A stretch of DNA of 49,404 bases from Thermoprotei archaeon (GTDB taxonomy: Archaea; Thermoproteota; Thermoprotei_A; Sulfolobales; Desulfurococcaceae), in assembly GCA_003661825.1 (NCBI GenBank), contig QMWW01000001.1, positions 1 through 49,404 on the forward strand. Reading direction: 5' to 3'. The position numbers and the translations under genes were made by a program. Below, piece by piece: positions 1 to 49,404 of this stretch. Each line of letters opens with the position of its first letter. The first letter of the stretch is position 1. The notes below the pieces were generated by a model, which had not been told where the DNA came from, searched no databases, and saw nothing but the letters and a program-made list of their open reading frames with translations.

Positions 1-691
1 GAACCAATACTCCGTTTCGTAGCTCGTAGACCCTATCCGCTAGGTCTAGGATCGGGAGAAATCTATGCTCAAAAACTAGTATCGAGACCCCCTTAGACTT
101 AAGCTCTACTAGGAGCTCTCTCAGCTTTACAGTACTATCATCGTCTAACCACATTAGTGGCTCATCGAGGAGGATGATGGAGGGATGGGTGATCGATGCC
201 TTAGCTATAGCCGTTCTCCTCAGCTCTCCTCCAGAGGCTTCAAAAATAGTTTTTCTAAGAATATCCCATGCACCAGTTGCGGCGGCCCAGCCCTCTACTT
301 CCCTAATAGCTTTCTCCCTATCTCCATATGCTTCTTCCGCGTACAAGAGGAGATCCACGCCTAGCCTGGGGTACACAAAGTGTGTATACGGGTTCTGGTT
401 TACCACCTTTACGTGACTAGCTGCTTCCTCCATAGATACTTCTCCGGAGAATGCACCGAGTATTGACACTTTACCACGTACTTCTCCTCCATAAACCTTT
501 ACGCCAATTCCTGATAGTGCTCTTACAAGAGAGGTTTTACCGGAACCGGTATCGCCTACTACGAGTATTATTTCCCCCCTATTCACTACAAGGTTCACTC
601 CTCTAAGCACCCACTCGCTATTGGGGTAGCGGAACCATAGGTTCTCTACTCTAAGTACTTCCCTACTGCTCGTATTCCTAGGCCTAGTCAT
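1..691 (-). CDS. ABC transporter ATP-binding protein, ECF/CbiO-like (partial; C-terminus runs off the window)
   Basis: Absent from the ORF track because it is truncated by the window edge. Manual translation from the start at 691 gives MTRPRNTSSREVLRVENLWFRYP... It has Walker A GDTGSGKTS, a Q-loop-like VNQNP, a signature-like SGGELRR and Walker B IILLDEP. A 14-nt gap separates it from the upstream membrane-protein gene. Confidence 0.85.
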   Translation of the reverse strand, partial: MTRPRNTSSREVLRVENLWFRYPNSEWVLRGVNLVVNRGEIILVVGDTGSGKTSLVRALSGIGVKVYGGEVRGKVSILGAFSGEVSMEEAASHVKVVNQNPYTHFVYPRLGVDLLLYAEEAYGDREKAIREVEGWAAATGAWDILRKTIFEASGGELRRTAIAKASITHPSIILLDEPLMWLDDDSTVKLRELLVELKSKGVSILVFEHRFLPILDLADRVYELRNGVLV

Positions 692-705
692 TGCTCACAA
701 TATCC

Positions 706-1311
706 TCAGATAGGTATTGTTCTGAGCTTCTTAAGGATACTTATAACGGGGAACGCCAATAGAACCGTGTATACAGCCGCTATAACGTTGAATAGTGATA
801 TAAGGTGCAGTATCTGGAGAACCATTAACAGTCCCTCCCAGTAATTTGTCGCTAACCCTAGGAAGTACATTAGGTAGAGTGGTGTAAAAGCTATGTTGAG
901 TAAAGCCATGAATACAACTCTCGACGCAGTAGCTAGTACTACTAGGAACATCTTTGTTTTCAGCGAATAACCCCACTTAGATACGAATTTTTCATGCATT
1001 AGTGCTACTGGTAAGTATGTGGAGAACTCTGCGAAAGCCTTCATAAAAGGACCTATAGGCTCAAGCGAACCTAGAGCCAGCACACCTAAGTAGAAGAGAG
1101 GAAGACCCATCAGAGTTGTAGCACGTAGAGAGACTAGACTGGCAACAACTAGTGGAACCCCGGCTAAGTCGAACAAGAGTATGGGTAGCAGTGGAAACGG
1201 TACTCTCACTACGTGTAGCGCAATAGCTGTAACCACGAGTAGTAGAACGAGGACAAGCCTGTGGAGACCAGTACTAGTACTTAAGCCTTGTCTAGCCATA
1301 CTACATGCCAC
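706..1311 (-). CDS. Polytopic membrane protein, possible ECF-transporter S (substrate-capture) component
   Basis: 201-aa ORF dominated by hydrophobic helices, located directly upstream of the ABC ATPase on the same strand. The family call is inferred from architecture and context only. Confidence 0.5.
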   Translation of the reverse strand: MACSMARQGLSTSTGLHRLVLVLLLVVTAIALHVVRVPFPLLPILLFDLAGVPLVVASLVSLRATTLMGLPLFYLGVLALGSLEPIGPFMKAFAEFSTYLPVALMHEKFVSKWGYSLKTKMFLVVLATASRVVFMALLNIAFTPLYLMYFLGLATNYWEGLLMVLQILHLISLFNVIAAVYTVLLAFPVISILKKLRTIPI

Positions 1312-1483
1312 CGGCTCGAACCGTGGACTGGAGGTTTTCGAGAAAGCACTTTAGCGCGAAGCCTATTCCGTTAAACACGTGTATCAGCTATAGCTCTTAA
1401 AACAGTATTGGTGCAATATGCTTCCCGCAACACATACGAGGAGGGAACGCTGGTTGAAGCTGGTCATAGCAGCGTATAGGTGG

Positions 1484-2290
1484 CTAAGGCTTAGCCGCTT
1501 TATTCAACGCTATAGCTAGCTCTAGCAGTTCCTTAGCCCTATCCCCATAGGATTCTAAAACCATAGTTATGGGGACTCCGCGCGTGGTACCAGACTCTTC
1601 CTCATAGCTTTCTCTAGAGGCTCCATCATTGGATGAGAACCCCTGTTTTAGCGGTGGATAAGTAGTGATAGCTAGTGCTACTGAATCTACCTCTCTACTC
1701 TCCGATCTCTCGACCGTCATATAGCGTCTCCTACTGAGAACTCCTACTATTACTCCTAAAGCTAAGAGAGCGGATCCTATAGCTATAGCGTAGCTTTGTG
1801 CGAGCAGATGCTCAATTAACATGGAGTAGATAGGCGTGAATACTAGGAGCAATAGGGAAGCTCCTAGAGCAGCTAGCACTACTCCTAGCGAGAGAAGCGG
1901 ATAGCTCAGCTTCCTAAGATGAGATAAGTAGAACATCTTTTCTATCCCACGGAAGGACCTAATACCCATTCTAGCTACATCGCTTAGGGGTAGGTAGAAG
2001 TACTGCACTAAATGACCTATACGTGAAGCTACTACAGCTTTCCCTCTTTCCTTACTGAATTCTCGTAGAAGCGTGGCACCATCTGCGGTTGACTGGAAAA
2101 AGACTAAGCGCTTATTAGTTAGAACAACCTCGAGATTCTTAAGGAAGAAGTAAGGATCACTACCGCTTACTAAGGGTATTATACTCAAGCCCTCGTATGC
2201 TTTGAGCTCGTCTACCCGAGCTCTATACAGGATCTTCTCTCCAGCTACTAGTAGTTCCTCGATCGCTACCGGTCTATACCCAGATTTCAA
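1484..2290 (-). CDS. Hypothetical membrane protein with an N-terminal PH/GRAM-like segment and two central TM helices
   Basis: 268-aa ORF with a TTG start that overlaps the upstream 89-aa ORF stop by 4 nt. The segment ...GEKILYRARV...VVLTNKRLVFFQ... resembles bacterial PH-like domains. Hydrophobic stretches are LLSLGVVLAALGASLLLLVF and AIAIGSALLALGVIVGVL. Confidence 0.5.
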   Translation of the reverse strand: MKSGYRPVAIEELLVAGEKILYRARVDELKAYEGLSIIPLVSGSDPYFFLKNLEVVLTNKRLVFFQSTADGATLLREFSKERGKAVVASRIGHLVQYFYLPLSDVARMGIRSFRGIEKMFYLSHLRKLSYPLLSLGVVLAALGASLLLLVFTPIYSMLIEHLLAQSYAIAIGSALLALGVIVGVLSRRRYMTVERSESREVDSVALAITTYPPLKQGFSSNDGASRESYEEESGTTRGVPITMVLESYGDRAKELLELAIALNKAAKP

Positions 2291-2556
2291 CGTAGCCCAC
2301 CTAAGGCTCTCCTGAGATCGCCTATTATCTGGTCAATTACTTGGCTTACCTCCCAGAGGATCTTAGACCTTAGCTCGCTCACATTCTCCTCGCTAAGGCG
2401 TAGTTCGCGCGAAATCTCTAGGAGTATGTTGTCGAGCTGTCTTGACAGCTGGTTATAGGCTTCTCTTAGGAGATCGTTTACCTCGTCGCGGGGCTCCCAT
2501 AGGTTGTTCAAGAACTTGTCGACATCGCCGAGTTCCCTGCCCAAAGTAACACCCAT
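2287..2556 (-). CDS. Hypothetical small coiled-coil protein
   Basis: 89-aa ORF, charged and heptad-like (LLREAYNQLSRQLDNILLEISRELRLSEENVSELRSKI). It appears translationally coupled to the downstream 268-aa ORF. Confidence 0.45.
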   Translation of the reverse strand: MGVTLGRELGDVDKFLNNLWEPRDEVNDLLREAYNQLSRQLDNILLEISRELRLSEENVSELRSKILWEVSQVIDQIIGDLRRALGGLR

Positions 2557-2708
2557 TCTCTAGTCCGTATAAAGCCGTCTACAACTATAAAATGCCGTGT
2601 TTATAAACTATTAAGTTTTGTTCTAGGCCCTGTTTCCTAAAGACCTAATCGCGGCTAAGACTTAATATCAAAGCCGTACTATACACTTCATTAAGGTGTA
2701 GCGTAGAG

Positions 2709-3584
2709 TTGGTTGACACTGGCTGGTTAGGTATAGATATTATCGGTTTCCTCTTCTGGATAGTCCTGTTATATGCTCTGATACATCCACAGCTCCGGAT
2801 GAGGAGTTTACAGCACGCAAGGCTACACATCATACAGAGCATTGAGAGAAAGTACGGCTGGCGCGTTATAACGATGATACACCGCCAGGAGAGGATAGGG
2901 TTCTTCGGCATACCGGTCTACAGGTACATAGACATAGAGGATTCAGAAGCTATACTGAGAGCTATAAGGAGTACACCGCCAGAACAACCTATAGCTCTGA
3001 TCCTACATACCCCTGGAGGACTAGTGCTAGCTGCTTCCCAGATAGCTATGGCTCTAAAGAAGCATAAAGGCGAGAAGATAGTTATAATCCCCCACTACGC
3101 TATGAGCGGAGGCACCCTTGTAGCACTCGCAGCCGATAAGATAATAATGGATCCAGACGCTGTCCTAGGACCTCTAGATCCCCAGCTACAGACCCCCAAG
3201 GGAGTGTTTCCAGCGCCCTCTCTAATCAAGATAGCTAGAACCAAGGGAAATAAGGCAAGCGATACAACGCTGATATACGCTGATGTAGCCGAGAAAGCTC
3301 TCAGCGAAATCCAGGAGATAATAGTGTATTTATTAAAAGACAGGCTCGGAGAAGATAAAGCGAGAGAAATAGCTAGGAAGTTGACCGAAGGCTACTATAC
3401 ACACGACTACCCAATAACAGCTGAGGAAGCCAAGGCTATGGGTCTTCCAGTATCGACAGATGTACCGCCAGAAATCTACGAGTTAATGGAGCTCTATCCC
3501 CAGGCAATACAGCAGAGACCAGGCGTCGAATATCTACCTAGGCCGCAAATACCCTACTACCATCACAGAGGTAGGGAGAGGTAG
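2709..3584 (+). CDS. SDH-family / ClpP-fold serine protease (SppA/NfeD-like), membrane anchored
   Basis: 291-aa ORF with a TTG start and an N-terminal TM helix. Motifs LILHTPGG and HYAMSGGTLVALAAD are typical of Clp-fold serine proteases. Confidence 0.75.
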   Translation: MVDTGWLGIDIIGFLFWIVLLYALIHPQLRMRSLQHARLHIIQSIERKYGWRVITMIHRQERIGFFGIPVYRYIDIEDSEAILRAIRSTPPEQPIALILHTPGGLVLAASQIAMALKKHKGEKIVIIPHYAMSGGTLVALAADKIIMDPDAVLGPLDPQLQTPKGVFPAPSLIKIARTKGNKASDTTLIYADVAEKALSEIQEIIVYLLKDRLGEDKAREIARKLTEGYYTHDYPITAEEAKAMGLPVSTDVPPEIYELMELYPQAIQQRPGVEYLPRPQIPYYHHRGRER

Positions 3585-3660
3585 CTGGGTATGCTGCAAC
3601 GATCCCGAAAGGCTCGAGCGGCTAGTTTATAGCTGTATAATGCAAAATATACTATAGGGG

Positions 3661-4032
3661 ATGAATCTAGTGGAAATATACAATATCCTAGCCGCAGAGA
3701 AAGGATTTGAGAGAACAATGGGCGATGTCCTCAGGGTATTAGGGCTATATCACAGGCTATGGCTATCCGAGATCTACGTTGAGATCAAGGGGATGAATAC
3801 TACGCTGAGAGAAGATATTCCAGAATACAGTGATATAGTAAAAGCCGTTAACGAGCTGAAGAACAAGGGATACGTATATGTTGAGAAAAGGACAAGGAGT
3901 TCTCTAGCAAGCACTGAAGGCGTAGAGGACTACCTTGTCTCGCTCGCCGGGCTCAGAGAAGTAGTACTAGCTCTACTCAGTGATAGGAAGCTAGTAGACT
4001 ACGTAAAAATTAAGCGGAGTATGTTCAGGTAA
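3661..4032 (+). CDS. Hypothetical protein, possible winged-helix DNA-binding protein
   Basis: 123-aa ORF in a clean intergenic context. I recognised no diagnostic motif. The winged-helix call is a weak impression from the helix-rich N-terminus and the KNKGYVYVEKR segment. Confidence 0.35.
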   Translation: MNLVEIYNILAAEKGFERTMGDVLRVLGLYHRLWLSEIYVEIKGMNTTLREDIPEYSDIVKAVNELKNKGYVYVEKRTRSSLASTEGVEDYLVSLAGLREVVLALLSDRKLVDYVKIKRSMFR

Positions 4033-4143
4033 ATCCGCGATGACGTAAACATACAGAGGATACCGTTAAACACTAGAAGCAAATTAGAGAGCGGAGCAAG
4101 GTATTTGGGCGGTTCTAGACATAGCTATTAGTAGACTCTGTAA

Positions 4144-5196
4144 GTGGTTGTTATGATTTCTACTTCTAGATCGGCTTGCATATGTATAGGCTTGAGAGAG
4201 CTGGTAGTACTTATCCTTATCTCAGCAGTAGCCGTAGCACTAGCCAGTTTTTTCGTCGCAAAACAGCTCGTAGAGAGTACTCAGCGCTTTACAGAGAACA
4301 GGGTGGACGGGGGAGATATAGCCGGGACTATACGTAGCTATATAGCCGCGGTAGAACCCGATATACGTAGAAGAGCGGTCGAGATCTTGGAGAAGTACCT
4401 AGCTACTAATAGGACTATTCTGTGGGATGTAGTGAAGGTCTACCCGGGCTCTTGGAGCATAGTTACATTCGAGGTTTACCCAAGCCTCGTCTACGAGATC
4501 AGGGTAAAGGTGCTAAAAACATGCCAGAAAGAATCCTGCGATGTAGTGGTTCTATTGAAGAACGCGAAGTGGAGCACTGTTAGGAACCTCGGTAGAGTAG
4601 CTGATGCAGAGTTCAGCTACACGCTATCGGGAGCTACGTGGAGAGAACACCACAGACTATACCTAGATAACACGTACTCTAACGAGACTAAGAGCGTAAT
4701 AGTTTCAATTAGCGTTCGCTTCCCCCAGTCCTTTATGAATAATGATGTCTTCAAGGTACATGCTATAAGTAGCTGGGTTAACGCGAACATAAAGTATCTC
4801 AGCGATCCATGGGGGCTAGAGTATGTGTCATCGCCTACAGAGGTAATAGAAGTAGGTGCTGGGGACTGCGAAGACTACGCTGTACTGCTAGCTACTCTCT
4901 ACCGTAGCGTAGGGCTAAAGGCTGCTGTAGGACTAGTCGATACAGATGGCGACGAATACGCTGAACACGCTGCTACCCTAGTCTACCTAGAGCGCGATAT
5001 CAGTAGCTTAGAGCTATTACTAGAGTCTATATCACAGGTTCTAGGCTATAGGGGTATTAGGTATCCATATATAAAAGCCGAGGATAACGAGCAGGCTGTA
5101 TGGGTTATAGTAGACCCTATAATGGCTATCGACCCTCCCAAAGACTGGAGGATAGGGCACGACTACTATAGCTTTATACTAGTGATAGATCCCTAG
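4144..5196 (+). CDS. Membrane-anchored transglutaminase-like (cysteine protease fold) protein
   Basis: 350-aa ORF with an N-terminal TM helix. The transglutaminase-core pattern GAGDCEDYAVLLATLYRSVGL is followed by EHAATLVY and VIVDP, giving a candidate Cys-His-Asp arrangement. Confidence 0.7.
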   Translation: MVVMISTSRSACICIGLRELVVLILISAVAVALASFFVAKQLVESTQRFTENRVDGGDIAGTIRSYIAAVEPDIRRRAVEILEKYLATNRTILWDVVKVYPGSWSIVTFEVYPSLVYEIRVKVLKTCQKESCDVVVLLKNAKWSTVRNLGRVADAEFSYTLSGATWREHHRLYLDNTYSNETKSVIVSISVRFPQSFMNNDVFKVHAISSWVNANIKYLSDPWGLEYVSSPTEVIEVGAGDCEDYAVLLATLYRSVGLKAAVGLVDTDGDEYAEHAATLVYLERDISSLELLLESISQVLGYRGIRYPYIKAEDNEQAVWVIVDPIMAIDPPKDWRIGHDYYSFILVIDP

Positions 5197-5218
5197 GATG
5201 TAAGTACTTCATAACTTG

Positions 5219-5878
5219 CTAAGGGATAATAGATACTTTCAGGAACCTATTGAGTAGAGAGTTTGTACCGAATAGGAATAGGAGAGAAGCAAGAATAAGC
5301 AGTAGCGCTTTGTACCTCTTGCTACTCATCACTCTCAGCCCTTTCCTAGCCAAGCCAGCTACAAAACCTAGCCACAGGAAATCCATCCATACATGGCTGG
5401 AGTACATGACTAGGATTCCAAGAATCCCTGTTCCAGCTAGTAGCGATATAAGGGTGAAGCCTATGCTCAGCCACCATAGCAGGAAGCATATGTTTAGACC
5501 GGTAAAAGCTATGCCGACTACTACGGGGTTTCTGAGTAGAGAACTGTTACTACTAGCACTACCTTCTAGCCAGGATCCTCTCAAGGAGTCTCTAACCAGC
5601 AGTACTGCGAAGTAGAATAGTACAAGTGATCCGCTAGCTACTAGGAGATCGCCGAAAACCCCGGTGAGTACAGCTTCTACTTGAGACATAAAATAAAATA
5701 GTACTGCTATGTAAGGTAGCTCTACGAGCATGTGCCCAAGAGCTACTAGGAGGCCTCCTTTAAACCCCTGCTTTGAGCCGATCGCTATAGTCGCTATAGT
5801 TAGAGGACGTGGGCTCAGAGCACCCGAGGGCGAGACCATAAGCGTTAAGTAGACTAGTGTGTATAGGCTTGAAGCCAT
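5219..5878 (-). CDS. LysE/RhtB-type translocator-like membrane protein
   Basis: 219-aa hydrophobic ORF. The N-terminal SPSGALSPRPLTIATIAIGSKQGFKGGLLVALGH segment resembles the LysE-family SPGP...G...G signature. Confidence 0.55.
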   Translation of the reverse strand: MASSLYTLVYLTLMVSPSGALSPRPLTIATIAIGSKQGFKGGLLVALGHMLVELPYIAVLFYFMSQVEAVLTGVFGDLLVASGSLVLFYFAVLLVRDSLRGSWLEGSASSNSSLLRNPVVVGIAFTGLNICFLLWWLSIGFTLISLLAGTGILGILVMYSSHVWMDFLWLGFVAGLARKGLRVMSSKRYKALLLILASLLFLFGTNSLLNRFLKVSIIP

Positions 5879-6155
5879 ATGCTCTAAACCCGCAGTGTTT
5901 TTTCTACCAAGCCTCCACGTTAGATGGTATCTAGGGCCCGCCCCTATACGGATCTACGCAAGATGCCATATAAAACTAGTACTATTCAACACTACTTGCT
6001 GACCAGCCTTCGCTGTAGAGCTACCAAACAGCTCTACCGGGTTAGTAGCTTATTTTAGCCGCTCTAGATGAGGCAAGAGCCCTCAAGAATAAATACAACA
6101 CGCAATACCTATTAGGATAAGGTATAGCTGTGCCAATTACTTGGTGGTGTAGCTG

Positions 6156-7154
6156 TTGTCGGTTGTCGTAGTCTTTTACAAGATTAGGAAAATGCTGATG
6201 AGGCTTTCCAAGAAGAAGGTCCTGATAGTAGTAATATTCTTTGTAACAACTCTGTTTTTCAACGCATCCCTGTTCTACTATGTGGAGAGCGTTATAGGTG
6301 GACGCGCTGATGTAGATTTCTATCTATCGATGTACTGGGCGCTGATAACTATGTCTACTATAGGCTATGGAGACGTTACTCCTAGAACAGAGCTGGGATA
6401 CGCTGTAGCATCTGTAGCTGCTGTAATGGGTATAGTGGTATATACCTTAACGATATCCGTTATAGCCGATGCATTCCTATCTAATATGTTGAAGAACCTG
6501 ATGGGGCTTGGTAAGATGAAGAAACAGATACTGGTAATTGGTGATAGTGGTTCTTGCGCCGAGGTAGTTGATGAGCTAGTTAAGAACAGGCTGGAAACAG
6601 TTACTGGATGGGTTAAAGGCGAAATGCCTAAGAACCCGCTACCAGTAGACTACGTCGTAGGGGATTACAGCGAGGACACTCTGAAGAGAGCTGGTGTAGA
6701 ACACGCTAAACACGTAATACTCTGTCTTGAAGACGACGACAAGGCTCTACACCTCTCCCTTCTCGTGAGGAAGCTTAACAAAAAAGCACGTATAACCGCT
6801 ATAGTGTCATCGGAGGAAACAAGAGAGCTTCTGCACGAGCTTAGAGTAGACTATATTCTATCTAGTAGGATGCTCGGCAGGCTCGCGGCTTCATCGGTGT
6901 TCGAACCCCTTGTAGTGAACTTCTTAACCGAGGTATCGACTGCGAGAGGCTACGCAGACCTAGTAGAGCATGTTGTAAGTGATAGAGAAGAAGGTATTAC
7001 TGTTGAGGAGCTCGAGCTTATGCTTGGTGGGAAGACGAAAGAAAAGTATAAAGCGCTACTGCTAGTAAGAGGTGAGCACAGCGTATTCCTCCCAGGACCG
7101 GATACCATGCTTAAACGCGGAGACCGCTTAGTTCTACTAAAAGCCCTGCACTAA
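6156..7154 (+). CDS. Potassium channel with C-terminal RCK/TrkA domains (MthK-like)
   Basis: Selectivity filter TIGYGD, followed by a Rossmann-like ILVIGDSGSCAEVVDEL segment and a TrkA-C-like tail. The true start may be an internal ATG (Met13 or Met15). Confidence 0.85.
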   Translation: MSVVVVFYKIRKMLMRLSKKKVLIVVIFFVTTLFFNASLFYYVESVIGGRADVDFYLSMYWALITMSTIGYGDVTPRTELGYAVASVAAVMGIVVYTLTISVIADAFLSNMLKNLMGLGKMKKQILVIGDSGSCAEVVDELVKNRLETVTGWVKGEMPKNPLPVDYVVGDYSEDTLKRAGVEHAKHVILCLEDDDKALHLSLLVRKLNKKARITAIVSSEETRELLHELRVDYILSSRMLGRLAASSVFEPLVVNFLTEVSTARGYADLVEHVVSDREEGITVEELELMLGGKTKEKYKALLLVRGEHSVFLPGPDTMLKRGDRLVLLKALH

Positions 7155-7217
7155 ACGGCTTGATCCGCTCGTCTGTTTATACGGGTAGTACCGCCTAGTA
7201 AGTCGTGGGGAGAACTA

Positions 7218-8561
7218 TTGGCTTCTGTATGCCCACTAAGCTACAGGTACGGTTCAGGGGAGATGCGGAACCTCTTGTCTAGAGAGAACCTTCTAAACAA
7301 GATGGTATATGTGGAGAAAGCAGTTATGCGGAGTTTAGAGGAAGCCGGGTTTGCGCCTAGAGGCTGTAGCGAGGAAGTGGAGAAAGCCGGGGCTCGAGTA
7401 GCAGTTGAAGACGTAGACAGGATGGAGAGGGAAACGGGACACGATACAGCGTCTCTAGCTATTCTCCTTGCAGAGCACAGCGGTATTTGCGGGCGCTACG
7501 TCCACTTAGGCGTTACGAGCAACGATGTCATCGATACTGCCTGGGCTTTAGTACTCCGCGAAGCACTAGACCTCTTACTGGATAGGCTAGCCAAGGTGAT
7601 CGCGAAGATAGCCTCTTTAGCTAGAGAGTACCGAGACCTCGTGTGTATTGGGAGAACTCATGGACAGCACGCTCTACCAATAACCCTGGGATTCAAGTTC
7701 GCGAACTATGTATATGAACTCGCTAGAAGCTACGAGCGTATCGTAGAAGCTAGGAAGAGGCTGGTTAGGTGCAAGATTTCCGGCGCCGTAGGCACTATGG
7801 CTGCTTGGGGAGAAAAGGGATTAATTGTACAGAGAACTGCATGTAGAGAGCTCGGTTTGGAACCACACTCTATCACGACTCAGATCGCTCCGCGCGACGG
7901 CTATGCAGAGCTCGTAGCTAATCTCTCCATCCTCGCTAGTCAGCTAGACAGGCTAGCCCTAGAGATCAGGGAGCTAGCTAGACCGGAGATAGGAGAAGTA
8001 GTTATCGCCCCGAAGATGATCGGGAGCAGTACTATGCCGCACAAGAACAACCCGGTAGTAGCTGAGAGGATCTCGGGGCTCTCCAGAATCCTACGCGGTT
8101 TAGCGGTATCAGCTCTAGAGAATATAGTTACCATGCACGAAAGAGACCTGAGTAATAGTAGCTGTGAGAGACTACTACTACCACACACTCTACTAGTAGC
8201 TGATCAGATGCTGATAGATACGGAGAAAGTCCTCGGATCAATTAGGATTAATAGAGAGGCTATCAAGAGGAACCTAGAGCTGTTAAGAGGAGTAATAGCT
8301 TCGGAGTGCTTAATGGTGAAACTTGTTCTGAAAAGCGGTATGCCTAGACACGAAGCACATAGAGCTCTCTCTTTACTAGTCCGTAGATCTTTAGATGAGA
8401 GAAGGGATTTCCTAGAGGTGTTTAGAGAGAGCGATCTCTCGTCAAAGCTGGATAGCAGCGATGCATACGAGTGCTTTAACTATGAAAACTACCTAGGTAG
8501 CTATAGAGAGCTTATAGATAGAGCGCTATCCTATGCTGAAAACGTCCTTGGAAAGAGGTGA
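7218..8561 (+). CDS. purB: Adenylosuccinate lyase
   Basis: 447-aa ORF carrying the fumarate-lyase signature GSSTMPHKNNP and the TSNDVIDTA motif. It sits adjacent to purA. Confidence 0.95.
   Translation: MASVCPLSYRYGSGEMRNLLSRENLLNKMVYVEKAVMRSLEEAGFAPRGCSEEVEKAGARVAVEDVDRMERETGHDTASLAILLAEHSGICGRYVHLGVTSNDVIDTAWALVLREALDLLLDRLAKVIAKIASLAREYRDLVCIGRTHGQHALPITLGFKFANYVYELARSYERIVEARKRLVRCKISGAVGTMAAWGEKGLIVQRTACRELGLEPHSITTQIAPRDGYAELVANLSILASQLDRLALEIRELARPEIGEVVIAPKMIGSSTMPHKNNPVVAERISGLSRILRGLAVSALENIVTMHERDLSNSSCERLLLPHTLLVADQMLIDTEKVLGSIRINREAIKRNLELLRGVIASECLMVKLVLKSGMPRHEAHRALSLLVRRSLDERRDFLEVFRESDLSSKLDSSDAYECFNYENYLGSYRELIDRALSYAENVLGKR
8555..8561 (+). promoter_or_regulatory. Shine-Dalgarno-like GAGGTGA upstream of purA, overlapping the purB stop codon
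   Basis: gaggtga ends 4 nt before the ATG at 8566. It is complementary to the conserved 16S 3' end, as expected for internal genes of archaeal operons. Confidence 0.45.
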
Positions 8562-8565
8562 TCAT

Positions 8566-9579: not shown

Positions 9580-9590
9580 GTGGTAAGGGG

Positions 9591-11012: not shown

Positions 11013-11076
11013 AATACGTAGCCAAAAACCCTACGGAAGTATAGAGCTATGCCACCAGCCTCTAGCCGTAGCAAAG

Positions 11077-11104
11077 TTTATATGATTGTACATGTTTTTA
11101 TATG
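11077..11104 (+). repeat. Left terminal inverted repeat of the tnpB element
   Basis: tttatatgattgtacatgtttttatatg. The reverse complement of 12546..12571 is tttatatgcttgtatgattttatatg. Confidence 0.5.
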
Positions 11105-11108
11105 TTCT

Positions 11109-11261: not shown

Positions 11262-11330
11262 ACTCCCACCAATACTATAACATAGCGAAAAACTGACTCC
11301 AGAAAGAATATATATGAGGCGAAAACTCCG

Positions 11331-12591: not shown

Positions 12592-12618
12592 AAATTGCTG
12601 TGTACCGTGGAGTAGAGT

Positions 12619-14469: not shown

Positions 14470-14489
14470 CTGGTCTCAAACCCGCCTAG

Positions 14490-36786: not shown

Positions 36787-36813
36787 ACTCTACTCCACGG
36801 TACACAGCAATTT

Positions 36814-38328: not shown

Positions 38329-38392
38329 CTTTGCTACGGCTAGAGGCTGGTGGCATAGCTCTATACTTCCGTAGGGTTTTTGGCTACGTATT

Positions 38393-39814: not shown

Positions 39815-39825
39815 CCCCTTACCAC

Positions 39826-40839: not shown

Positions 40840-40843
40840 ATGA

Positions 40844-42187: not shown

Positions 42188-42250
42188 TAGTTCTCCCCAC
42201 GACTTACTAGGCGGTACTACCCGTATAAACAGACGAGCGGATCAAGCCGT

Positions 42251-43249
42251 TTAGTGCAGGGCTTTTAGTAGAACTAAGCGGTCTCCGCGTTTAAGCATGG
42301 TATCCGGTCCTGGGAGGAATACGCTGTGCTCACCTCTTACTAGCAGTAGCGCTTTATACTTTTCTTTCGTCTTCCCACCAAGCATAAGCTCGAGCTCCTC
42401 AACAGTAATACCTTCTTCTCTATCACTTACAACATGCTCTACTAGGTCTGCGTAGCCTCTCGCAGTCGATACCTCGGTTAAGAAGTTCACTACAAGGGGT
42501 TCGAACACCGATGAAGCCGCGAGCCTGCCGAGCATCCTACTAGATAGAATATAGTCTACTCTAAGCTCGTGCAGAAGCTCTCTTGTTTCCTCCGATGACA
42601 CTATAGCGGTTATACGTGCTTTTTTGTTAAGCTTCCTCACGAGAAGGGAGAGGTGTAGAGCCTTGTCGTCGTCTTCAAGACAGAGTATTACGTGTTTAGC
42701 GTGTTCTACACCAGCTCTCTTCAGAGTGTCCTCGCTGTAATCCCCTACGACGTAGTCTACTGGTAGCGGGTTCTTAGGCATTTCGCCTTTAACCCATCCA
42801 GTAACTGTTTCCAGCCTGTTCTTAACTAGCTCATCAACTACCTCGGCGCAAGAACCACTATCACCAATTACCAGTATCTGTTTCTTCATCTTACCAAGCC
42901 CCATCAGGTTCTTCAACATATTAGATAGGAATGCATCGGCTATAACGGATATCGTTAAGGTATATACCACTATACCCATTACAGCAGCTACAGATGCTAC
43001 AGCGTATCCCAGCTCTGTTCTAGGAGTAACGTCTCCATAGCCTATAGTAGACATAGTTATCAGCGCCCAGTACATCGATAGATAGAAATCTACATCAGCG
43101 CGTCCACCTATAACGCTCTCCACATAGTAGAACAGGGATGCGTTGAAAAACAGAGTTGTTACAAAGAATATTACTACTATCAGGACCTTCTTCTTGGAAA
43201 GCCTCATCAGCATTTTCCTAATCTTGTAAAAGACTACGACAACCGACAA
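42251..43249 (-). CDS. RCK-domain potassium channel; mirror copy of 6156..7154
   Basis: Exact mirror with identical translation. Confidence 0.85.
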   Translation of the reverse strand: MSVVVVFYKIRKMLMRLSKKKVLIVVIFFVTTLFFNASLFYYVESVIGGRADVDFYLSMYWALITMSTIGYGDVTPRTELGYAVASVAAVMGIVVYTLTISVIADAFLSNMLKNLMGLGKMKKQILVIGDSGSCAEVVDELVKNRLETVTGWVKGEMPKNPLPVDYVVGDYSEDTLKRAGVEHAKHVILCLEDDDKALHLSLLVRKLNKKARITAIVSSEETRELLHELRVDYILSSRMLGRLAASSVFEPLVVNFLTEVSTARGYADLVEHVVSDREEGITVEELELMLGGKTKEKYKALLLVRGEHSVFLPGPDTMLKRGDRLVLLKALH

Positions 43250-43526
43250 CAGCTACACCACCAAGTAATTGGCACAGCTATACCTTATCCTAATAGGTAT
43301 TGCGTGTTGTATTTATTCTTGAGGGCTCTTGCCTCATCTAGAGCGGCTAAAATAAGCTACTAACCCGGTAGAGCTGTTTGGTAGCTCTACAGCGAAGGCT
43401 GGTCAGCAAGTAGTGTTGAATAGTACTAGTTTTATATGGCATCTTGCGTAGATCCGTATAGGGGCGGGCCCTAGATACCATCTAACGTGGAGGCTTGGTA
43501 GAAAAAACACTGCGGGTTTAGAGCAT

Positions 43527-44186
43527 ATGGCTTCAAGCCTATACACACTAGTCTACTTAACGCTTATGGTCTCGCCCTCGGGTGCTCTGAGCCCACGTCC
43601 TCTAACTATAGCGACTATAGCGATCGGCTCAAAGCAGGGGTTTAAAGGAGGCCTCCTAGTAGCTCTTGGGCACATGCTCGTAGAGCTACCTTACATAGCA
43701 GTACTATTTTATTTTATGTCTCAAGTAGAAGCTGTACTCACCGGGGTTTTCGGCGATCTCCTAGTAGCTAGCGGATCACTTGTACTATTCTACTTCGCAG
43801 TACTGCTGGTTAGAGACTCCTTGAGAGGATCCTGGCTAGAAGGTAGTGCTAGTAGTAACAGTTCTCTACTCAGAAACCCCGTAGTAGTCGGCATAGCTTT
43901 TACCGGTCTAAACATATGCTTCCTGCTATGGTGGCTGAGCATAGGCTTCACCCTTATATCGCTACTAGCTGGAACAGGGATTCTTGGAATCCTAGTCATG
44001 TACTCCAGCCATGTATGGATGGATTTCCTGTGGCTAGGTTTTGTAGCTGGCTTGGCTAGGAAAGGGCTGAGAGTGATGAGTAGCAAGAGGTACAAAGCGC
44101 TACTGCTTATTCTTGCTTCTCTCCTATTCCTATTCGGTACAAACTCTCTACTCAATAGGTTCCTGAAAGTATCTATTATCCCTTAG
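43527..44186 (+). CDS. LysE/RhtB-like membrane protein; mirror copy of 5219..5878
   Basis: Exact mirror with identical translation. Confidence 0.55.
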   Translation: MASSLYTLVYLTLMVSPSGALSPRPLTIATIAIGSKQGFKGGLLVALGHMLVELPYIAVLFYFMSQVEAVLTGVFGDLLVASGSLVLFYFAVLLVRDSLRGSWLEGSASSNSSLLRNPVVVGIAFTGLNICFLLWWLSIGFTLISLLAGTGILGILVMYSSHVWMDFLWLGFVAGLARKGLRVMSSKRYKALLLILASLLFLFGTNSLLNRFLKVSIIP

Positions 44187-44208
44187 CAAGTTATGAAGTA
44201 CTTACATC

Positions 44209-45261
44209 CTAGGGATCTATCACTAGTATAAAGCTATAGTAGTCGTGCCCTATCCTCCAGTCTTTGGGAGGGTCGATAGCCATTATAGGGTCTACTATAA
44301 CCCATACAGCCTGCTCGTTATCCTCGGCTTTTATATATGGATACCTAATACCCCTATAGCCTAGAACCTGTGATATAGACTCTAGTAATAGCTCTAAGCT
44401 ACTGATATCGCGCTCTAGGTAGACTAGGGTAGCAGCGTGTTCAGCGTATTCGTCGCCATCTGTATCGACTAGTCCTACAGCAGCCTTTAGCCCTACGCTA
44501 CGGTAGAGAGTAGCTAGCAGTACAGCGTAGTCTTCGCAGTCCCCAGCACCTACTTCTATTACCTCTGTAGGCGATGACACATACTCTAGCCCCCATGGAT
44601 CGCTGAGATACTTTATGTTCGCGTTAACCCAGCTACTTATAGCATGTACCTTGAAGACATCATTATTCATAAAGGACTGGGGGAAGCGAACGCTAATTGA
44701 AACTATTACGCTCTTAGTCTCGTTAGAGTACGTGTTATCTAGGTATAGTCTGTGGTGTTCTCTCCACGTAGCTCCCGATAGCGTGTAGCTGAACTCTGCA
44801 TCAGCTACTCTACCGAGGTTCCTAACAGTGCTCCACTTCGCGTTCTTCAATAGAACCACTACATCGCAGGATTCTTTCTGGCATGTTTTTAGCACCTTTA
44901 CCCTGATCTCGTAGACGAGGCTTGGGTAAACCTCGAATGTAACTATGCTCCAAGAGCCCGGGTAGACCTTCACTACATCCCACAGAATAGTCCTATTAGT
45001 AGCTAGGTACTTCTCCAAGATCTCGACCGCTCTTCTACGTATATCGGGTTCTACCGCGGCTATATAGCTACGTATAGTCCCGGCTATATCTCCCCCGTCC
45101 ACCCTGTTCTCTGTAAAGCGCTGAGTACTCTCTACGAGCTGTTTTGCGACGAAAAAACTGGCTAGTGCTACGGCTACTGCTGAGATAAGGATAAGTACTA
45201 CCAGCTCTCTCAAGCCTATACATATGCAAGCCGATCTAGAAGTAGAAATCATAACAACCAC
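44209..45261 (-). CDS. Transglutaminase-like protein; mirror copy of 4144..5196
   Basis: Exact mirror with identical translation. Confidence 0.7.
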   Translation of the reverse strand: MVVMISTSRSACICIGLRELVVLILISAVAVALASFFVAKQLVESTQRFTENRVDGGDIAGTIRSYIAAVEPDIRRRAVEILEKYLATNRTILWDVVKVYPGSWSIVTFEVYPSLVYEIRVKVLKTCQKESCDVVVLLKNAKWSTVRNLGRVADAEFSYTLSGATWREHHRLYLDNTYSNETKSVIVSISVRFPQSFMNNDVFKVHAISSWVNANIKYLSDPWGLEYVSSPTEVIEVGAGDCEDYAVLLATLYRSVGLKAAVGLVDTDGDEYAEHAATLVYLERDISSLELLLESISQVLGYRGIRYPYIKAEDNEQAVWVIVDPIMAIDPPKDWRIGHDYYSFILVIDP

Positions 45262-45372
45262 TTACAGAGTCTACTAATAGCTATGTCTAGAACCGCCCAA
45301 ATACCTTGCTCCGCTCTCTAATTTGCTTCTAGTGTTTAACGGTATCCTCTGTATGTTTACGTCATCGCGGAT

Positions 45373-45744
45373 TTACCTGAACATACTCCGCTTAATTTTT
45401 ACGTAGTCTACTAGCTTCCTATCACTGAGTAGAGCTAGTACTACTTCTCTGAGCCCGGCGAGCGAGACAAGGTAGTCCTCTACGCCTTCAGTGCTTGCTA
45501 GAGAACTCCTTGTCCTTTTCTCAACATATACGTATCCCTTGTTCTTCAGCTCGTTAACGGCTTTTACTATATCACTGTATTCTGGAATATCTTCTCTCAG
45601 CGTAGTATTCATCCCCTTGATCTCAACGTAGATCTCGGATAGCCATAGCCTGTGATATAGCCCTAATACCCTGAGGACATCGCCCATTGTTCTCTCAAAT
45701 CCTTTCTCTGCGGCTAGGATATTGTATATTTCCACTAGATTCAT
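45373..45744 (-). CDS. Hypothetical protein (possible winged helix); mirror copy of 3661..4032
   Basis: Exact mirror with identical translation. Confidence 0.35.
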   Translation of the reverse strand: MNLVEIYNILAAEKGFERTMGDVLRVLGLYHRLWLSEIYVEIKGMNTTLREDIPEYSDIVKAVNELKNKGYVYVEKRTRSSLASTEGVEDYLVSLAGLREVVLALLSDRKLVDYVKIKRSMFR

Positions 45745-45820
45745 CCCCTATAGTATATTTTGCATTATACAGCTATAAACTAGCCGCTCGAGCCTTTCGG
45801 GATCGTTGCAGCATACCCAG

Positions 45821-46696
45821 CTACCTCTCCCTACCTCTGTGATGGTAGTAGGGTATTTGCGGCCTAGGTAGATATTCGACGCCTGGTCTCTGCTGTATTG
45901 CCTGGGGATAGAGCTCCATTAACTCGTAGATTTCTGGCGGTACATCTGTCGATACTGGAAGACCCATAGCCTTGGCTTCCTCAGCTGTTATTGGGTAGTC
46001 GTGTGTATAGTAGCCTTCGGTCAACTTCCTAGCTATTTCTCTCGCTTTATCTTCTCCGAGCCTGTCTTTTAATAAATACACTATTATCTCCTGGATTTCG
46101 CTGAGAGCTTTCTCGGCTACATCAGCGTATATCAGCGTTGTATCGCTTGCCTTATTTCCCTTGGTTCTAGCTATCTTGATTAGAGAGGGCGCTGGAAACA
46201 CTCCCTTGGGGGTCTGTAGCTGGGGATCTAGAGGTCCTAGGACAGCGTCTGGATCCATTATTATCTTATCGGCTGCGAGTGCTACAAGGGTGCCTCCGCT
46301 CATAGCGTAGTGGGGGATTATAACTATCTTCTCGCCTTTATGCTTCTTTAGAGCCATAGCTATCTGGGAAGCAGCTAGCACTAGTCCTCCAGGGGTATGT
46401 AGGATCAGAGCTATAGGTTGTTCTGGCGGTGTACTCCTTATAGCTCTCAGTATAGCTTCTGAATCCTCTATGTCTATGTACCTGTAGACCGGTATGCCGA
46501 AGAACCCTATCCTCTCCTGGCGGTGTATCATCGTTATAACGCGCCAGCCGTACTTTCTCTCAATGCTCTGTATGATGTGTAGCCTTGCGTGCTGTAAACT
46601 CCTCATCCGGAGCTGTGGATGTATCAGAGCATATAACAGGACTATCCAGAAGAGGAAACCGATAATATCTATACCTAACCAGCCAGTGTCAACCAA
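45821..46696 (-). CDS. SDH/ClpP-fold serine protease; mirror copy of 2709..3584
   Basis: Exact mirror with identical translation. Confidence 0.75.
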   Translation of the reverse strand: MVDTGWLGIDIIGFLFWIVLLYALIHPQLRMRSLQHARLHIIQSIERKYGWRVITMIHRQERIGFFGIPVYRYIDIEDSEAILRAIRSTPPEQPIALILHTPGGLVLAASQIAMALKKHKGEKIVIIPHYAMSGGTLVALAADKIIMDPDAVLGPLDPQLQTPKGVFPAPSLIKIARTKGNKASDTTLIYADVAEKALSEIQEIIVYLLKDRLGEDKAREIARKLTEGYYTHDYPITAEEAKAMGLPVSTDVPPEIYELMELYPQAIQQRPGVEYLPRPQIPYYHHRGRER

Positions 46697-46848
46697 CTCT
46701 ACGCTACACCTTAATGAAGTGTATAGTACGGCTTTGATATTAAGTCTTAGCCGCGATTAGGTCTTTAGGAAACAGGGCCTAGAACAAAACTTAATAGTTT
46801 ATAAACACGGCATTTTATAGTTGTAGACGGCTTTATACGGACTAGAGA

Positions 46849-47118
46849 ATGGGTGTTACTTTGGGCAGGGAACTCGGCGATGTCGACAAGTTCTTGAACA
46901 ACCTATGGGAGCCCCGCGACGAGGTAAACGATCTCCTAAGAGAAGCCTATAACCAGCTGTCAAGACAGCTCGACAACATACTCCTAGAGATTTCGCGCGA
47001 ACTACGCCTTAGCGAGGAGAATGTGAGCGAGCTAAGGTCTAAGATCCTCTGGGAGGTAAGCCAAGTAATTGACCAGATAATAGGCGATCTCAGGAGAGCC
47101 TTAGGTGGGCTACGTTGA
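46849..47118 (+). CDS. Hypothetical coiled-coil protein; mirror copy of 2287..2556
   Basis: Exact mirror with identical translation. Confidence 0.45.
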   Translation: MGVTLGRELGDVDKFLNNLWEPRDEVNDLLREAYNQLSRQLDNILLEISRELRLSEENVSELRSKILWEVSQVIDQIIGDLRRALGGLR

Positions 47119-47921
47119 AATCTGGGTATAGACCGGTAGCGATCGAGGAACTACTAGTAGCTGGAGAGAAGATCCTGTATAGAGCTCGGGTAGACGAGCT
47201 CAAAGCATACGAGGGCTTGAGTATAATACCCTTAGTAAGCGGTAGTGATCCTTACTTCTTCCTTAAGAATCTCGAGGTTGTTCTAACTAATAAGCGCTTA
47301 GTCTTTTTCCAGTCAACCGCAGATGGTGCCACGCTTCTACGAGAATTCAGTAAGGAAAGAGGGAAAGCTGTAGTAGCTTCACGTATAGGTCATTTAGTGC
47401 AGTACTTCTACCTACCCCTAAGCGATGTAGCTAGAATGGGTATTAGGTCCTTCCGTGGGATAGAAAAGATGTTCTACTTATCTCATCTTAGGAAGCTGAG
47501 CTATCCGCTTCTCTCGCTAGGAGTAGTGCTAGCTGCTCTAGGAGCTTCCCTATTGCTCCTAGTATTCACGCCTATCTACTCCATGTTAATTGAGCATCTG
47601 CTCGCACAAAGCTACGCTATAGCTATAGGATCCGCTCTCTTAGCTTTAGGAGTAATAGTAGGAGTTCTCAGTAGGAGACGCTATATGACGGTCGAGAGAT
47701 CGGAGAGTAGAGAGGTAGATTCAGTAGCACTAGCTATCACTACTTATCCACCGCTAAAACAGGGGTTCTCATCCAATGATGGAGCCTCTAGAGAAAGCTA
47801 TGAGGAAGAGTCTGGTACCACGCGCGGAGTCCCCATAACTATGGTTTTAGAATCCTATGGGGATAGGGCTAAGGAACTGCTAGAGCTAGCTATAGCGTTG
47901 AATAAAGCGGCTAAGCCTTAG
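47115..47921 (+). CDS. Hypothetical PH-like membrane protein; mirror copy of 1484..2290
   Basis: Exact mirror with identical translation. Confidence 0.5.
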   Translation: MKSGYRPVAIEELLVAGEKILYRARVDELKAYEGLSIIPLVSGSDPYFFLKNLEVVLTNKRLVFFQSTADGATLLREFSKERGKAVVASRIGHLVQYFYLPLSDVARMGIRSFRGIEKMFYLSHLRKLSYPLLSLGVVLAALGASLLLLVFTPIYSMLIEHLLAQSYAIAIGSALLALGVIVGVLSRRRYMTVERSESREVDSVALAITTYPPLKQGFSSNDGASRESYEEESGTTRGVPITMVLESYGDRAKELLELAIALNKAAKP

Positions 47922-48093
47922 CCACCTATACGCTGCTATGACCAGCTTCAACCAGCGTTCCCTCCTCGTATGTGTTGCGGGAAGCATATTGCACCAATAC
48001 TGTTTTAAGAGCTATAGCTGATACACGTGTTTAACGGAATAGGCTTCGCGCTAAAGTGCTTTCTCGAAAACCTCCAGTCCACGGTTCGAGCCG

Positions 48094-48699
48094 GTGGCAT
48101 GTAGTATGGCTAGACAAGGCTTAAGTACTAGTACTGGTCTCCACAGGCTTGTCCTCGTTCTACTACTCGTGGTTACAGCTATTGCGCTACACGTAGTGAG
48201 AGTACCGTTTCCACTGCTACCCATACTCTTGTTCGACTTAGCCGGGGTTCCACTAGTTGTTGCCAGTCTAGTCTCTCTACGTGCTACAACTCTGATGGGT
48301 CTTCCTCTCTTCTACTTAGGTGTGCTGGCTCTAGGTTCGCTTGAGCCTATAGGTCCTTTTATGAAGGCTTTCGCAGAGTTCTCCACATACTTACCAGTAG
48401 CACTAATGCATGAAAAATTCGTATCTAAGTGGGGTTATTCGCTGAAAACAAAGATGTTCCTAGTAGTACTAGCTACTGCGTCGAGAGTTGTATTCATGGC
48501 TTTACTCAACATAGCTTTTACACCACTCTACCTAATGTACTTCCTAGGGTTAGCGACAAATTACTGGGAGGGACTGTTAATGGTTCTCCAGATACTGCAC
48601 CTTATATCACTATTCAACGTTATAGCGGCTGTATACACGGTTCTATTGGCGTTCCCCGTTATAAGTATCCTTAAGAAGCTCAGAACAATACCTATCTGA
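48094..48699 (+). CDS. Possible ECF S-component membrane protein; mirror copy of 706..1311
   Basis: Exact mirror with identical translation. Confidence 0.5.
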   Translation: MACSMARQGLSTSTGLHRLVLVLLLVVTAIALHVVRVPFPLLPILLFDLAGVPLVVASLVSLRATTLMGLPLFYLGVLALGSLEPIGPFMKAFAEFSTYLPVALMHEKFVSKWGYSLKTKMFLVVLATASRVVFMALLNIAFTPLYLMYFLGLATNYWEGLLMVLQILHLISLFNVIAAVYTVLLAFPVISILKKLRTIPI

Positions 48700-48713
48700 G
48701 GATATTGTGAGCA

Positions 48714-49404
48714 ATGACTAGGCCTAGGAATACGAGCAGTAGGGAAGTACTTAGAGTAGAGAACCTATGGTTCCGCTACCCCAATAGCGAGTGGGTGCTT
48801 AGAGGAGTGAACCTTGTAGTGAATAGGGGGGAAATAATACTCGTAGTAGGCGATACCGGTTCCGGTAAAACCTCTCTTGTAAGAGCACTATCAGGAATTG
48901 GCGTAAAGGTTTATGGAGGAGAAGTACGTGGTAAAGTGTCAATACTCGGTGCATTCTCCGGAGAAGTATCTATGGAGGAAGCAGCTAGTCACGTAAAGGT
49001 GGTAAACCAGAACCCGTATACACACTTTGTGTACCCCAGGCTAGGCGTGGATCTCCTCTTGTACGCGGAAGAAGCATATGGAGATAGGGAGAAAGCTATT
49101 AGGGAAGTAGAGGGCTGGGCCGCCGCAACTGGTGCATGGGATATTCTTAGAAAAACTATTTTTGAAGCCTCTGGAGGAGAGCTGAGGAGAACGGCTATAG
49201 CTAAGGCATCGATCACCCATCCCTCCATCATCCTCCTCGATGAGCCACTAATGTGGTTAGACGATGATAGTACTGTAAAGCTGAGAGAGCTCCTAGTAGA
49301 GCTTAAGTCTAAGGGGGTCTCGATACTAGTTTTTGAGCATAGATTTCTCCCGATCCTAGACCTAGCGGATAGGGTCTACGAGCTACGAAACGGAGTATTG
49401 GTTC
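48714..49404 (+). CDS. ABC transporter ATP-binding protein (partial); mirror copy of 1..691
   Basis: I translated it manually from the ATG at 48714. It has Walker A GDTGSGKTS, SGGELRR and IILLDEP, and it runs off the window end. Confidence 0.85.
   Translation, partial: MTRPRNTSSREVLRVENLWFRYPNSEWVLRGVNLVVNRGEIILVVGDTGSGKTSLVRALSGIGVKVYGGEVRGKVSILGAFSGEVSMEEAASHVKVVNQNPYTHFVYPRLGVDLLLYAEEAYGDREKAIREVEGWAAATGAWDILRKTIFEASGGELRRTAIAKASITHPSIILLDEPLMWLDDDSTVKLRELLVELKSKGVSILVFEHRFLPILDLADRVYELRNGVLV

Follow-up and report, generated by a model that had tools for sequence, protein, structure and literature searches.

Symmetry and gene content of the window

Why should an archaeal contig filled with ordinary genes read identically on its two strands? 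For the window, the whole 49,404-nt stretch analysed here, the question is whether such a palindrome exists in the genome or was created during amplification, sequencing or assembly. An earlier note on this DNA had described it as a perfect palindrome of 2 x 24,702 nt with no spacer, and direct comparison of the full-length window with its own reverse complement confirms the description: there are 0 mismatches across 49,404 nt, the length is even, the mirror axis falls between 24702 and 24703 without a spacer, and the base counts give A=T and G=C exactly. The reported ORF pairs with coordinates summing to 49405 were recovered as well (706+48699, 12619+36786, 23256+26149), and only 24,702 nt are unique, in line with the claim that the duplicates are reflections. 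Chance cannot be the source of an exact mirror of this size. Copies that had evolved or been sequenced separately would be expected to differ, so the lack of a single mismatch fits one unitig written twice.

All seemingly duplicated genes in the window are mirror images, and the features of the arms are collected in Table 1. The housekeeping cargo attributed to this DNA (purA, purB, sat, Mrp) is confirmed by Pfam. The ABC-transporter ATPase gene was said to be cut at both ends, and this holds, given its Pfam ABC_tran match and the Walker A (GDTGSGKTS), signature (SGGELRR) and Walker B (ILLDEP) motifs of ORF 2-694(-). The window end inside this gene is an ordinary contig break; a separate contig (L060), collinear with arm positions 18933-24638, stops 64 nt short of the break point. 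Rfam and tRNA scans of the arm gave no match, nor did exact-protein look-ups of the 201-aa ORF (706-1311) and of purA, where start codons or alleles probably differ.

Table 1. Positions of the arms, the junction elements and the genes in the window
Feature	Position	Strand	Remarks
Arm A	1..24702		Exact reverse complement of arm B; one copy of the sole unique 24.7 kb
Arm B	24703..49404		RHH-like gene and sat on the + strand; collinear with native contigs
ABC-transporter ATPase gene, cut by window end	2..694	-	Mirrored at 48711-49403(+); Pfam ABC_tran, E=8e-19
purB	7218-8561		Pfam-confirmed
purA	8533-9579		Pfam-confirmed
Mrp-type subunits	12619-17286		Pfam-confirmed
First chimeric base (arm B as native side)	24688		T in the window, A in every native contig reaching there
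28-nt palindrome	24689..24716		GCTTATTAATTATA followed by TATAATTAATAAGC; perfect and native; centre exactly at the window axis
77-aa RHH-like protein gene	24750..24983	+	Mirrored at 24422-24655(-); first gene of the RHH-like/sat operon
sat, ATP sulfurylase, 382 aa	25001..26149	+	Mirrored at 23256-24404(-); PF01747, E=4e-92; PF14306, E=3e-53

The native junction in other assemblies

The earlier note had proposed asking of the raw reads whether any of them leaves the RHH gene for non-mirrored DNA. Public assemblies, used here in place of reads, answer this decisive question: on the far side of the axis, four contigs of the same population (99.7-99.9% identity) show no mirror image but an APS kinase flank. 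The four are ENA ERZ27248349 k141_559886 (MEGAHIT k141; L001 and L004 are this one contig), ENA ERZ1742239 NODE_12165 (a NODE-style name; L002), Logan SRR7051320_63231 (L005) and JGI Ga0190363_1006967 (L006). All four encode an identical RHH-like protein, and three of them an identical sat product too. Beyond the axis, a divergent APS kinase gene comes first, followed by MatE, phosphodiesterase and Mrp-like genes, and the chromosome can be followed for up to ~10 kb (L004); 1500/1500 nt of the upstream flank are the same in L004, L005 and L006. On the other side, arm B is collinear with L004 (7,781 nt, 17 SNPs), L002 (8,170 nt), L005, L006 and a further contig, L003. From 24688 outward (24717 by symmetry, with arm A as the native side) there is no relation between the window and native DNA, and the divergence begins at the first base outside the 28-nt palindrome. 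Paralogous Mrp-like clusters on either side of the axis were considered as the cause of an inversion and rejected, the native left flank and the arm having no nucleotide similarity at E<1e-20.

The mirrored arrangement was sought elsewhere. The mirrored-junction pattern (GRTAAWGC...GCATTACC) had 0 matches in the genome and viral contig collections, and in the metagenome contig collection the same pattern retrieved the native junction only. Among 53 loci from related archaea, one of them on a 1.24-Mb contig and another in the complete genome of Ignicoccus pacificus, there was no mirrored RHH-like/sat pair. Large contigs of relatives carry cysC, the RHH-like gene and sat hundreds of kb from their start, e.g., at 528-535 kb of 1.24 Mb in L023, well inside the contig. 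One synonymous SNP, at arm position 140 (24842, mirror 24563), is private to the window and lacking in all five other contigs, which themselves comprise at least two haplotypes; the window is therefore derived from another dataset or strain than these five. No native-junction contig was found for its own SNP-bearing strain. The real chromosome of this uncultured Desulfurococcales/Thermoprotei archaeon would read MatE, APS kinase(-), the 28-nt palindrome, RHH-like(+), sat(+) and, further on, the ABC ATPase.

With ordinary, different genes beyond the axis in other assemblies of this organism, an artefactual origin is favoured, and the same observation bears on the end of a linear replicon. Hairpin-ended linear replicons are known from Borrelia, phage N15 and rudiviruses, and reading through a covalently closed hairpin telomere, or through a replicated telomere junction, would yield a spacer-less perfect palindrome like the one seen here. 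In this case, however, DNA extends past the axis in four contigs, the relatives keep the same neighbourhood deep inside large contigs, and the gene content is chromosomal housekeeping; no telomere-resolvase (protelomerase) family was among the Pfam/NCBIfam matches of the listed ORFs, within the 24.7 kb. The continuation of the chromosome in the native contigs and in the relatives effectively refutes this alternative, which the earlier note had listed and which now has a negligible probability.

A natural palindrome at the axis

The 28-nt palindrome is identical in the five other contigs, and of the whole junction it alone spans the axis in the real genome. It is also the only spacer-less palindrome with arms of at least 8 nt in 17.7 kb of native contig L004, and no further one was found in the 24.7-kb arm (~42 kb of native sequence in all). 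In 200 shuffles the longest palindrome arm was 12 nt, versus 14 nt here, and the probability that a random fold point meets the centre of this element is roughly 1 in 10^4-10^5. The 49.4-kb palindrome is almost certainly 24.7 kb of archaeal chromosome fused to its own reverse complement at this natural 28-base element, since the other assemblies run on past this point.

The placement of the axis at the exact centre of a native palindrome favours mechanisms that depend on self-complementarity. The artefact ranked first in the earlier note is thus both supported and sharpened by the native contigs and by the position of the axis, and its individual routes fare differently: a hairpin in the k-mer graph and fold-back self-priming gain in credibility, whereas SMRTbell or nanopore read-through loses it, the axis not being random. 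Adapter-less SMRTbells and nanopore template-to-complement read-through are known sources of mirrored reads, and if such a read were kept by the assembler, polishing would render the arms identical. Long reads, however, fold at random fragment ends, and the odds that one did so precisely at the midpoint of the single long palindrome in ~42 kb are roughly 1 in 10^4 or lower, which makes this origin highly improbable.

A palindromic duplication could also have arisen in vivo: after resection of a double-strand break beside the 28-nt palindrome, the 3' end would have snapped back on itself to prime synthesis, and the hairpin-capped end would then have been copied by replication in some cells. In yeast and mammalian cells, short inverted repeats near breaks seed giant palindromes centred on the repeat (PMC7999016), and the window is likewise centred on a short inverted repeat that existed beforehand, a trait that it would equally have under the artefact models and that does not discriminate between them. 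The private SNP, which sets the strain of the window apart from the five other contigs, is compatible with such an event. The eukaryotic palindromes are nevertheless experimentally demonstrated chromosomal molecules, whereas the window is known from assembled sequence alone and every other assembly reaching past the palindrome has the normal junction; the 53 related loci show no mirrored pair. The arms show zero divergence over 24.7 kb and end at the same base, as expected of one unitig written twice, and a duplication would, in addition, have deleted or disconnected the APS kinase side. Long spacer-less palindromes are cleaved by Mre11-Rad50-type nucleases, and whole-contig palindromes are a documented assembler error. 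A duplication in the cell is accordingly very unlikely, and the native junction in other assemblies upholds the earlier note in placing it below an artefact. If it were real, some members of this hyperthermophilic Desulfurococcales population would carry a spacer-less inverted duplication of at least 49 kb seeded at an operator-like palindrome, to our knowledge the first chromosomal palindrome in an archaeon seeded by a short inverted repeat; no comparable case in archaeal chromosomes was found in the literature searched.

A probable fold-back in the assembly graph

The remaining artefactual routes differ in where the join was made, and here the k-mer content of the junction is informative. 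All k-mers of the mirrored junction are present in the native sequence for k=21-29, while at k >= 30 the number missing is k-29. For an assembler stage whose (k+1)-mer is no longer than the native palindrome at the fold point, the junction needs no k-mer foreign to the true genome. A toy de Bruijn walk on the native sequence halts at position 9940 of L004, the left edge of the palindrome, with A and T as possible continuations; when the left flank is left unsampled, the walk returns as an exact mirror of itself at k=21, 27 and 29, but not at k=31 or 33. The MEGAHIT contig L003 (ERZ27227320 k141_301518) terminates exactly at the palindrome edge, starting with GCTTATTAATTATA, and the element therefore demonstrably disturbs graph assembly. 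A pure graph fold-back requires an assembler stage with k <= 29; with larger k only, junction-spanning chimeric reads are needed.

The divergence of the window from native sequence at the palindrome edge, the axis at the palindrome centre and the k-mer equivalence at k <= 29 together support an artefact, and the window is probably a mis-assembled contig in which one unitig was folded back in the de Bruijn graph rather than a palindrome of the genome. In the proposed course of events, the 28-nt palindrome exceeds the small starting k of multi-k de Bruijn assemblers (e.g., k=21), and a path arriving from the sat side would meet two exits, the true flank (next base A) and its own reverse complement (T). 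The fold-back exit would have been taken, presumably since the true flank had low coverage, was removed as a tip or was interrupted by strain variation. A single 24,702-nt unitig would then be output forwards and backwards, giving an even-length, spacer-less and error-free palindrome with both ends at the same base.

Whole-contig palindromes have been reported as assembly errors in 81 contigs from SPAdes assemblies of M. bovis (PMC9455707) and in cyanobacterial single-cell assemblies (bioRxiv 10.1101/2023.06.06.543983), and the authors of rnaSPAdes describe hairpin edges, in which an edge is connected with its reverse complement, as a possible source of chimeric palindromic sequence (bioRxiv 10.1101/420208). 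Like the window, these contigs consist of a sequence followed by its exact reverse complement, with mirrored genes; they differ in that the cited reports name no seed, whereas in the window the seed can be pinned to a 28-nt palindrome of at least k+1 bases and the fold reproduced from native sequence.

Alternatively, the palindrome may have been made in vitro, if during MDA or library preparation a single strand with its 3' end at the 28-nt palindrome folded onto itself and was extended, the product being sequenced and faithfully assembled. Hairpin self-priming predicts an axis at the centre of the self-complementary 28-mer and would work for assemblers with k above 29 too. MDA chimeras are mostly inverted and primed at 2-21 nt of complementarity (Lasken and Stockwell 2007, PMC1855051), a range that includes the 14-nt arms found here, and similar hairpin connections have been noted for MDA data in the rnaSPAdes preprint. 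The typical MDA product, however, carries an intervening deletion (more than 85% of the rearrangements are inverted with intervening deletions), while the window has neither deletion nor spacer and is symmetric to the last base. Chimeric reads from one site would also need to outcompete native reads to dominate a 24.7-kb contig, and the graph mechanism explains everything from native sequence alone. A chimeric molecule is thus rather unlikely, and we infer that the join arose in the assembler and not in the library.

Implications for genome quality and for a possible regulation of sat

As biology, the large palindrome has no significance: no more than 24.7 kb of it is real, and what matters about the fold is quality control. 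Palindromic contigs inflate genome size and duplicate marker genes, which raises the apparent contamination of a bin, and their spurious inverted terminal repeats could lead completeness tools to take the contig for a finished linear element. The clean and reproducible rule that emerges from this case is that multi-k de Bruijn assemblers can break, or fold back on themselves, where the native sequence has a perfect palindrome of k+1 bases or more. A simple check is to ask whether a contig equals its own reverse complement and, if so, to trim it to one arm.

The gene next to the palindrome had been labelled RHH, and this label receives weak support. With a profile built from 16 homologues, positions 10-55 align to the NikR RHH domain of Pyrococcus (2bj1) at a weak E=0.02, and the predicted secondary structure places helices at 17-27, 35-51 and 61-74. 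Single-sequence searches of the 77-aa protein against Pfam, NCBIfam and PDB gave no match (CheR_N only, below threshold, in Pfam); its single-sequence AlphaFold model is mediocre (pLDDT 70), and a Foldseek search with this model had no match at E<1. The protein is likely to bind the 28-nt palindrome, a prediction for which a limited literature search returned no relevant paper on an RHH regulator of sat in archaea.

Within the palindrome, a conserved core, TTAATTA-N4-TAATTAA, occupies 24694-24711, and 37 of 45 relatives share this motif in front of the RHH-like/sat operon. The motif is a candidate operator for the sulfate-activation genes of hyperthermophilic archaea. The artefact has in this way exposed a real biological element, a conserved TTAATTA-N4-TAATTAA upstream of a conserved RHH-like gene and sat.

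Mirror Symmetry and Gene Content

The earlier note described the window as a perfect palindrome without a spacer, with ORFs in mirrored pairs and the same gene cut at both ends, and all of this was borne out: 49,404/49,404 positions equal their own reverse complement around an axis at 24702/24703, the coordinates of paired ORFs sum to 49405, and both ends interrupt one ABC-ATPase gene. The window holds only 24,702 nt of unique sequence. Its far end is an ordinary contig break; L060, a contig of another assembly, stops 64 nt earlier inside the same gene.

Genes of one arm, with mirror coordinates where reported
Feature	Coordinates	Mirror	Strand	Family match
ABC ATPase fragment	2-694		-	Pfam ABC_tran, E=8e-19
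SDH-type ClpP-like protease	2709-3584
Transglutaminase-like protein	4144-5196
LysE-type translocator	5219-5878
K+ channel with TrkA-N domain	6156-7154
purB	7218-8561
purA	8533-9579
FAD-dependent oxidoreductase	9591-11012
TnpB-like protein, 415 aa	11331-12578	36827-38074(-)	+	PF07282, E=9e-15
Mrp-type antiporter subunits (four)	12619-17286
KaiC-like ATPase	19983-21374
CysK/M-like PLP enzyme, 397 aa	21399-22592		-
Small RHH-like paralogue, 75 aa	22952-23179	26226-26453(+)	-
sat (ATP sulfurylase)	23256-24404
Small RHH-like paralogue, 77 aa	24422-24655	24750-24983(+)	-

The gene of the TnpB-like protein, an IS200/IS605 accessory protein related to Cas12f, separates the FAD oxidoreductase gene from the Mrp cluster; the protein scores 93.6 bits against NCBIfam guided_TnpB, slightly under the cut-off of 100. 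No TnpA was seen in family scans of the arm, and Rfam gave no ncRNA match there. The CysK/CysM-like enzyme has an N-terminal extension of ~100 aa without any family match and falls far under the cysteine-synthase equivalog cut-offs (166 bits vs 344). Its gene, sat, the RHH-like genes and the APS kinase gene (cysC) of the native locus suggest a sulfur-assimilation island.

The Native Junction in Other Contigs

Exact-protein look-ups with sat and the 77-aa protein retrieved L001/L004 (one contig, ENA ERZ27248349 k141_559886, 22,967 nt), L002 (ENA ERZ1742239 NODE_12165), L003 (ENA ERZ27227320 k141_301518) and L005 (Logan SRR7051320_63231), and a pattern scan added L006 (JGI Ga0190363_1006967). 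The retrieved contigs are 99.7-99.9% identical to the arm, and the five accessions come from several assembly pipelines and include two or more haplotypes. A synonymous SNP at arm position 140 is private to the window against all five, which assigns the window to another dataset or strain.

In L004, L002, L005 and L006 the RHH-like gene is preceded by non-mirrored sequence carrying an APS kinase gene on the opposite strand (PF01583, E=6.5e-60). Past this gene, L004 has MatE and phosphodiesterase genes as well as an Mrp-like cluster. Upstream, L004, L005 and L006 are identical to one another at 1500/1500 positions. A right-aligned comparison showed that the window shares the native sequence through GCTTATTAATTATATATAATTAATAAGC, directly to the left of which the sequences are unrelated, the first differing base lying at 24688 (T in the window, A in native). 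Read-through of a hairpin terminus, which the earlier note had listed as an alternative, is contradicted by these contigs, in which the chromosome runs on past the axis, and a hairpin telomere retains virtually no probability.

The terminal 54 nt of L002 (8210-8263) have no match to the genome and contain a stretch beginning with CTGTCTCTTATACACATCT, which we take to be the Nextera transposase adapter; this end is an untrimmed adapter assembled onto the contig terminus. At 1-4640, L004 carries a further Mrp/Mbx-like cluster (MnhB, Oxidored_q2, MNHE, Proton_antipo_M, NADHdh) that is paralogous to the Mrp cluster of the window, is located ~5-10 kb across the axis and, like the latter, is oriented toward it. 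This quasi-symmetry was considered as a cause of the fold-back and rejected as coincidental, since the two clusters have no nucleotide similarity (at E<1e-20).

Probable Fold-Back at a Native Palindrome

The axis of the window is the exact centre of GCTTATTAATTATATATAATTAATAAGC, a perfect 28-nt palindrome that is the sole spacer-less palindrome with arms of at least 8 nt in 17.7 kb of native contig L004; the 24.7-kb arm contains none, and the longest palindrome arm in 200 shuffles was 12. The 28-nt palindrome itself is authentic and conserved. Its coincidence with the axis argues against folding at random fragment ends, as expected of SMRTbell molecules lacking an adapter or of nanopore template-to-complement read-through; of the artefact sources proposed in the earlier note these two consequently lose ground and are very unlikely, while traversal of an assembler graph is favoured. 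The axis position is compatible with mechanisms that depend on self-complementarity, namely a graph hairpin, in-vitro snap-back priming and in-vivo fold-back priming.

For k=21 to 29, all k-mers of the mirrored junction (±120 nt) are already present in each native contig, whereas at k=30 and above the junction contains exactly k-29 k-mers that native sequence lacks. We then ran a toy de Bruijn walk on k-mers of native L004 only, beginning within the RHH-like gene and moving toward the palindrome. It halted at the palindrome's left edge (L004 position 9940) with A and T as possible next bases. When the native left flank was omitted, to imitate missing coverage or tip clipping, the walk retraced its own reverse complement unambiguously and mirrored itself exactly at k=21, 27 and 29, but not at k=31 or 33. 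The MEGAHIT contig L003 starts exactly with GCTTATTAATTATA and so terminates at the same palindrome edge, which is the appearance expected of a unitig broken at the A/T branch; the palindrome is thus a demonstrated obstacle to graph assembly in this population. It broke the contig in one assembly, and in that of the window the fold-back branch would have been taken. The Logan contig L005 spans the palindrome in native form; Logan assemblies use k=31, which would fit the limit of k≤29.

The 49.4-kb palindrome is almost certainly not a real genomic feature. The artefact preferred in the earlier note is supported by the four contigs with a non-mirrored flank and can be refined: the window is probably a fold-back at the native 28-nt palindrome made by a de Bruijn-graph assembler. 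A graph hairpin is favoured because it needs nothing beyond the native sequence and accounts for the perfect match between the arms, their common end point and the break in L003. Chimeric molecules formed in vitro, by snap-back priming during MDA or library preparation, would also place the axis at the centre of a self-complementary palindrome; however, an intervening deletion is usual in MDA chimeras (PMC1855051) and is missing from the window, and such an origin seems unlikely. Yeast and mammalian cells do form palindromes at short inverted repeats (PMC7999016), and a duplication in vivo, by fold-back priming after a double-strand break, would likewise fit the axis, but it is very unlikely because every contig spanning the junction, and all relatives, have the normal arrangement.

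A Conserved Motif Upstream of sat and Small Proteins Flanking It

Scanning one genome per species yielded 53 loci with a sat relative (56-79% amino-acid identity) from Desulfurococcales, Pyrodictiaceae, Acidilobaceae, Caldisphaera, Thermococcus, Geoglobus and others, on which basis the window is assigned to an uncultured Desulfurococcales/Thermoprotei archaeon. A mirrored pair occurs in 0/53; in most of them a small RHH-like gene immediately precedes sat, and cysC is close by in many. The 77-aa protein is highly conserved. A profile of 16 homologues aligns weakly with the RHH DNA-binding domain of Pyrococcus NikR (E=0.02), and other family or fold searches gave no support for the RHH label. 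The 77-aa and 75-aa proteins, encoded on either side of sat, are paralogues (35% identical) sharing a conserved acidic linker and the C-terminal tail ...E(D/E)xxxIxE(K/R)LRxLGY(I/L); neither falls into a Pfam or NCBIfam family. The two appear to represent an uncharacterised family that is conserved widely in archaea.

Of 45 usable loci, 37 carry the repeat TTAATTA-N4-TAATTAA, with up to two mismatches allowed, no more than 120 nt upstream of the small gene; there are 49 hits in 5.4 kb of such upstream sequence, compared with 16 in the other 274 kb of these loci. Loci with the motif include Desulfurococcales, Pyrodictiaceae, Caldisphaera, Thermococcus and Geoglobus, at 25-120 nt from the RHH-like gene, and some have two copies 22-47 nt apart; in the window it occurs once, at the axis (24694-24711), within the native palindrome (24689-24716). 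A limited literature search found no papers on this repeat, a candidate for the operator that controls sulfate-activation genes. The palindrome may serve, within a bidirectional promoter region, as the operator through which an RHH-like regulator of sulfate activation controls its own expression.
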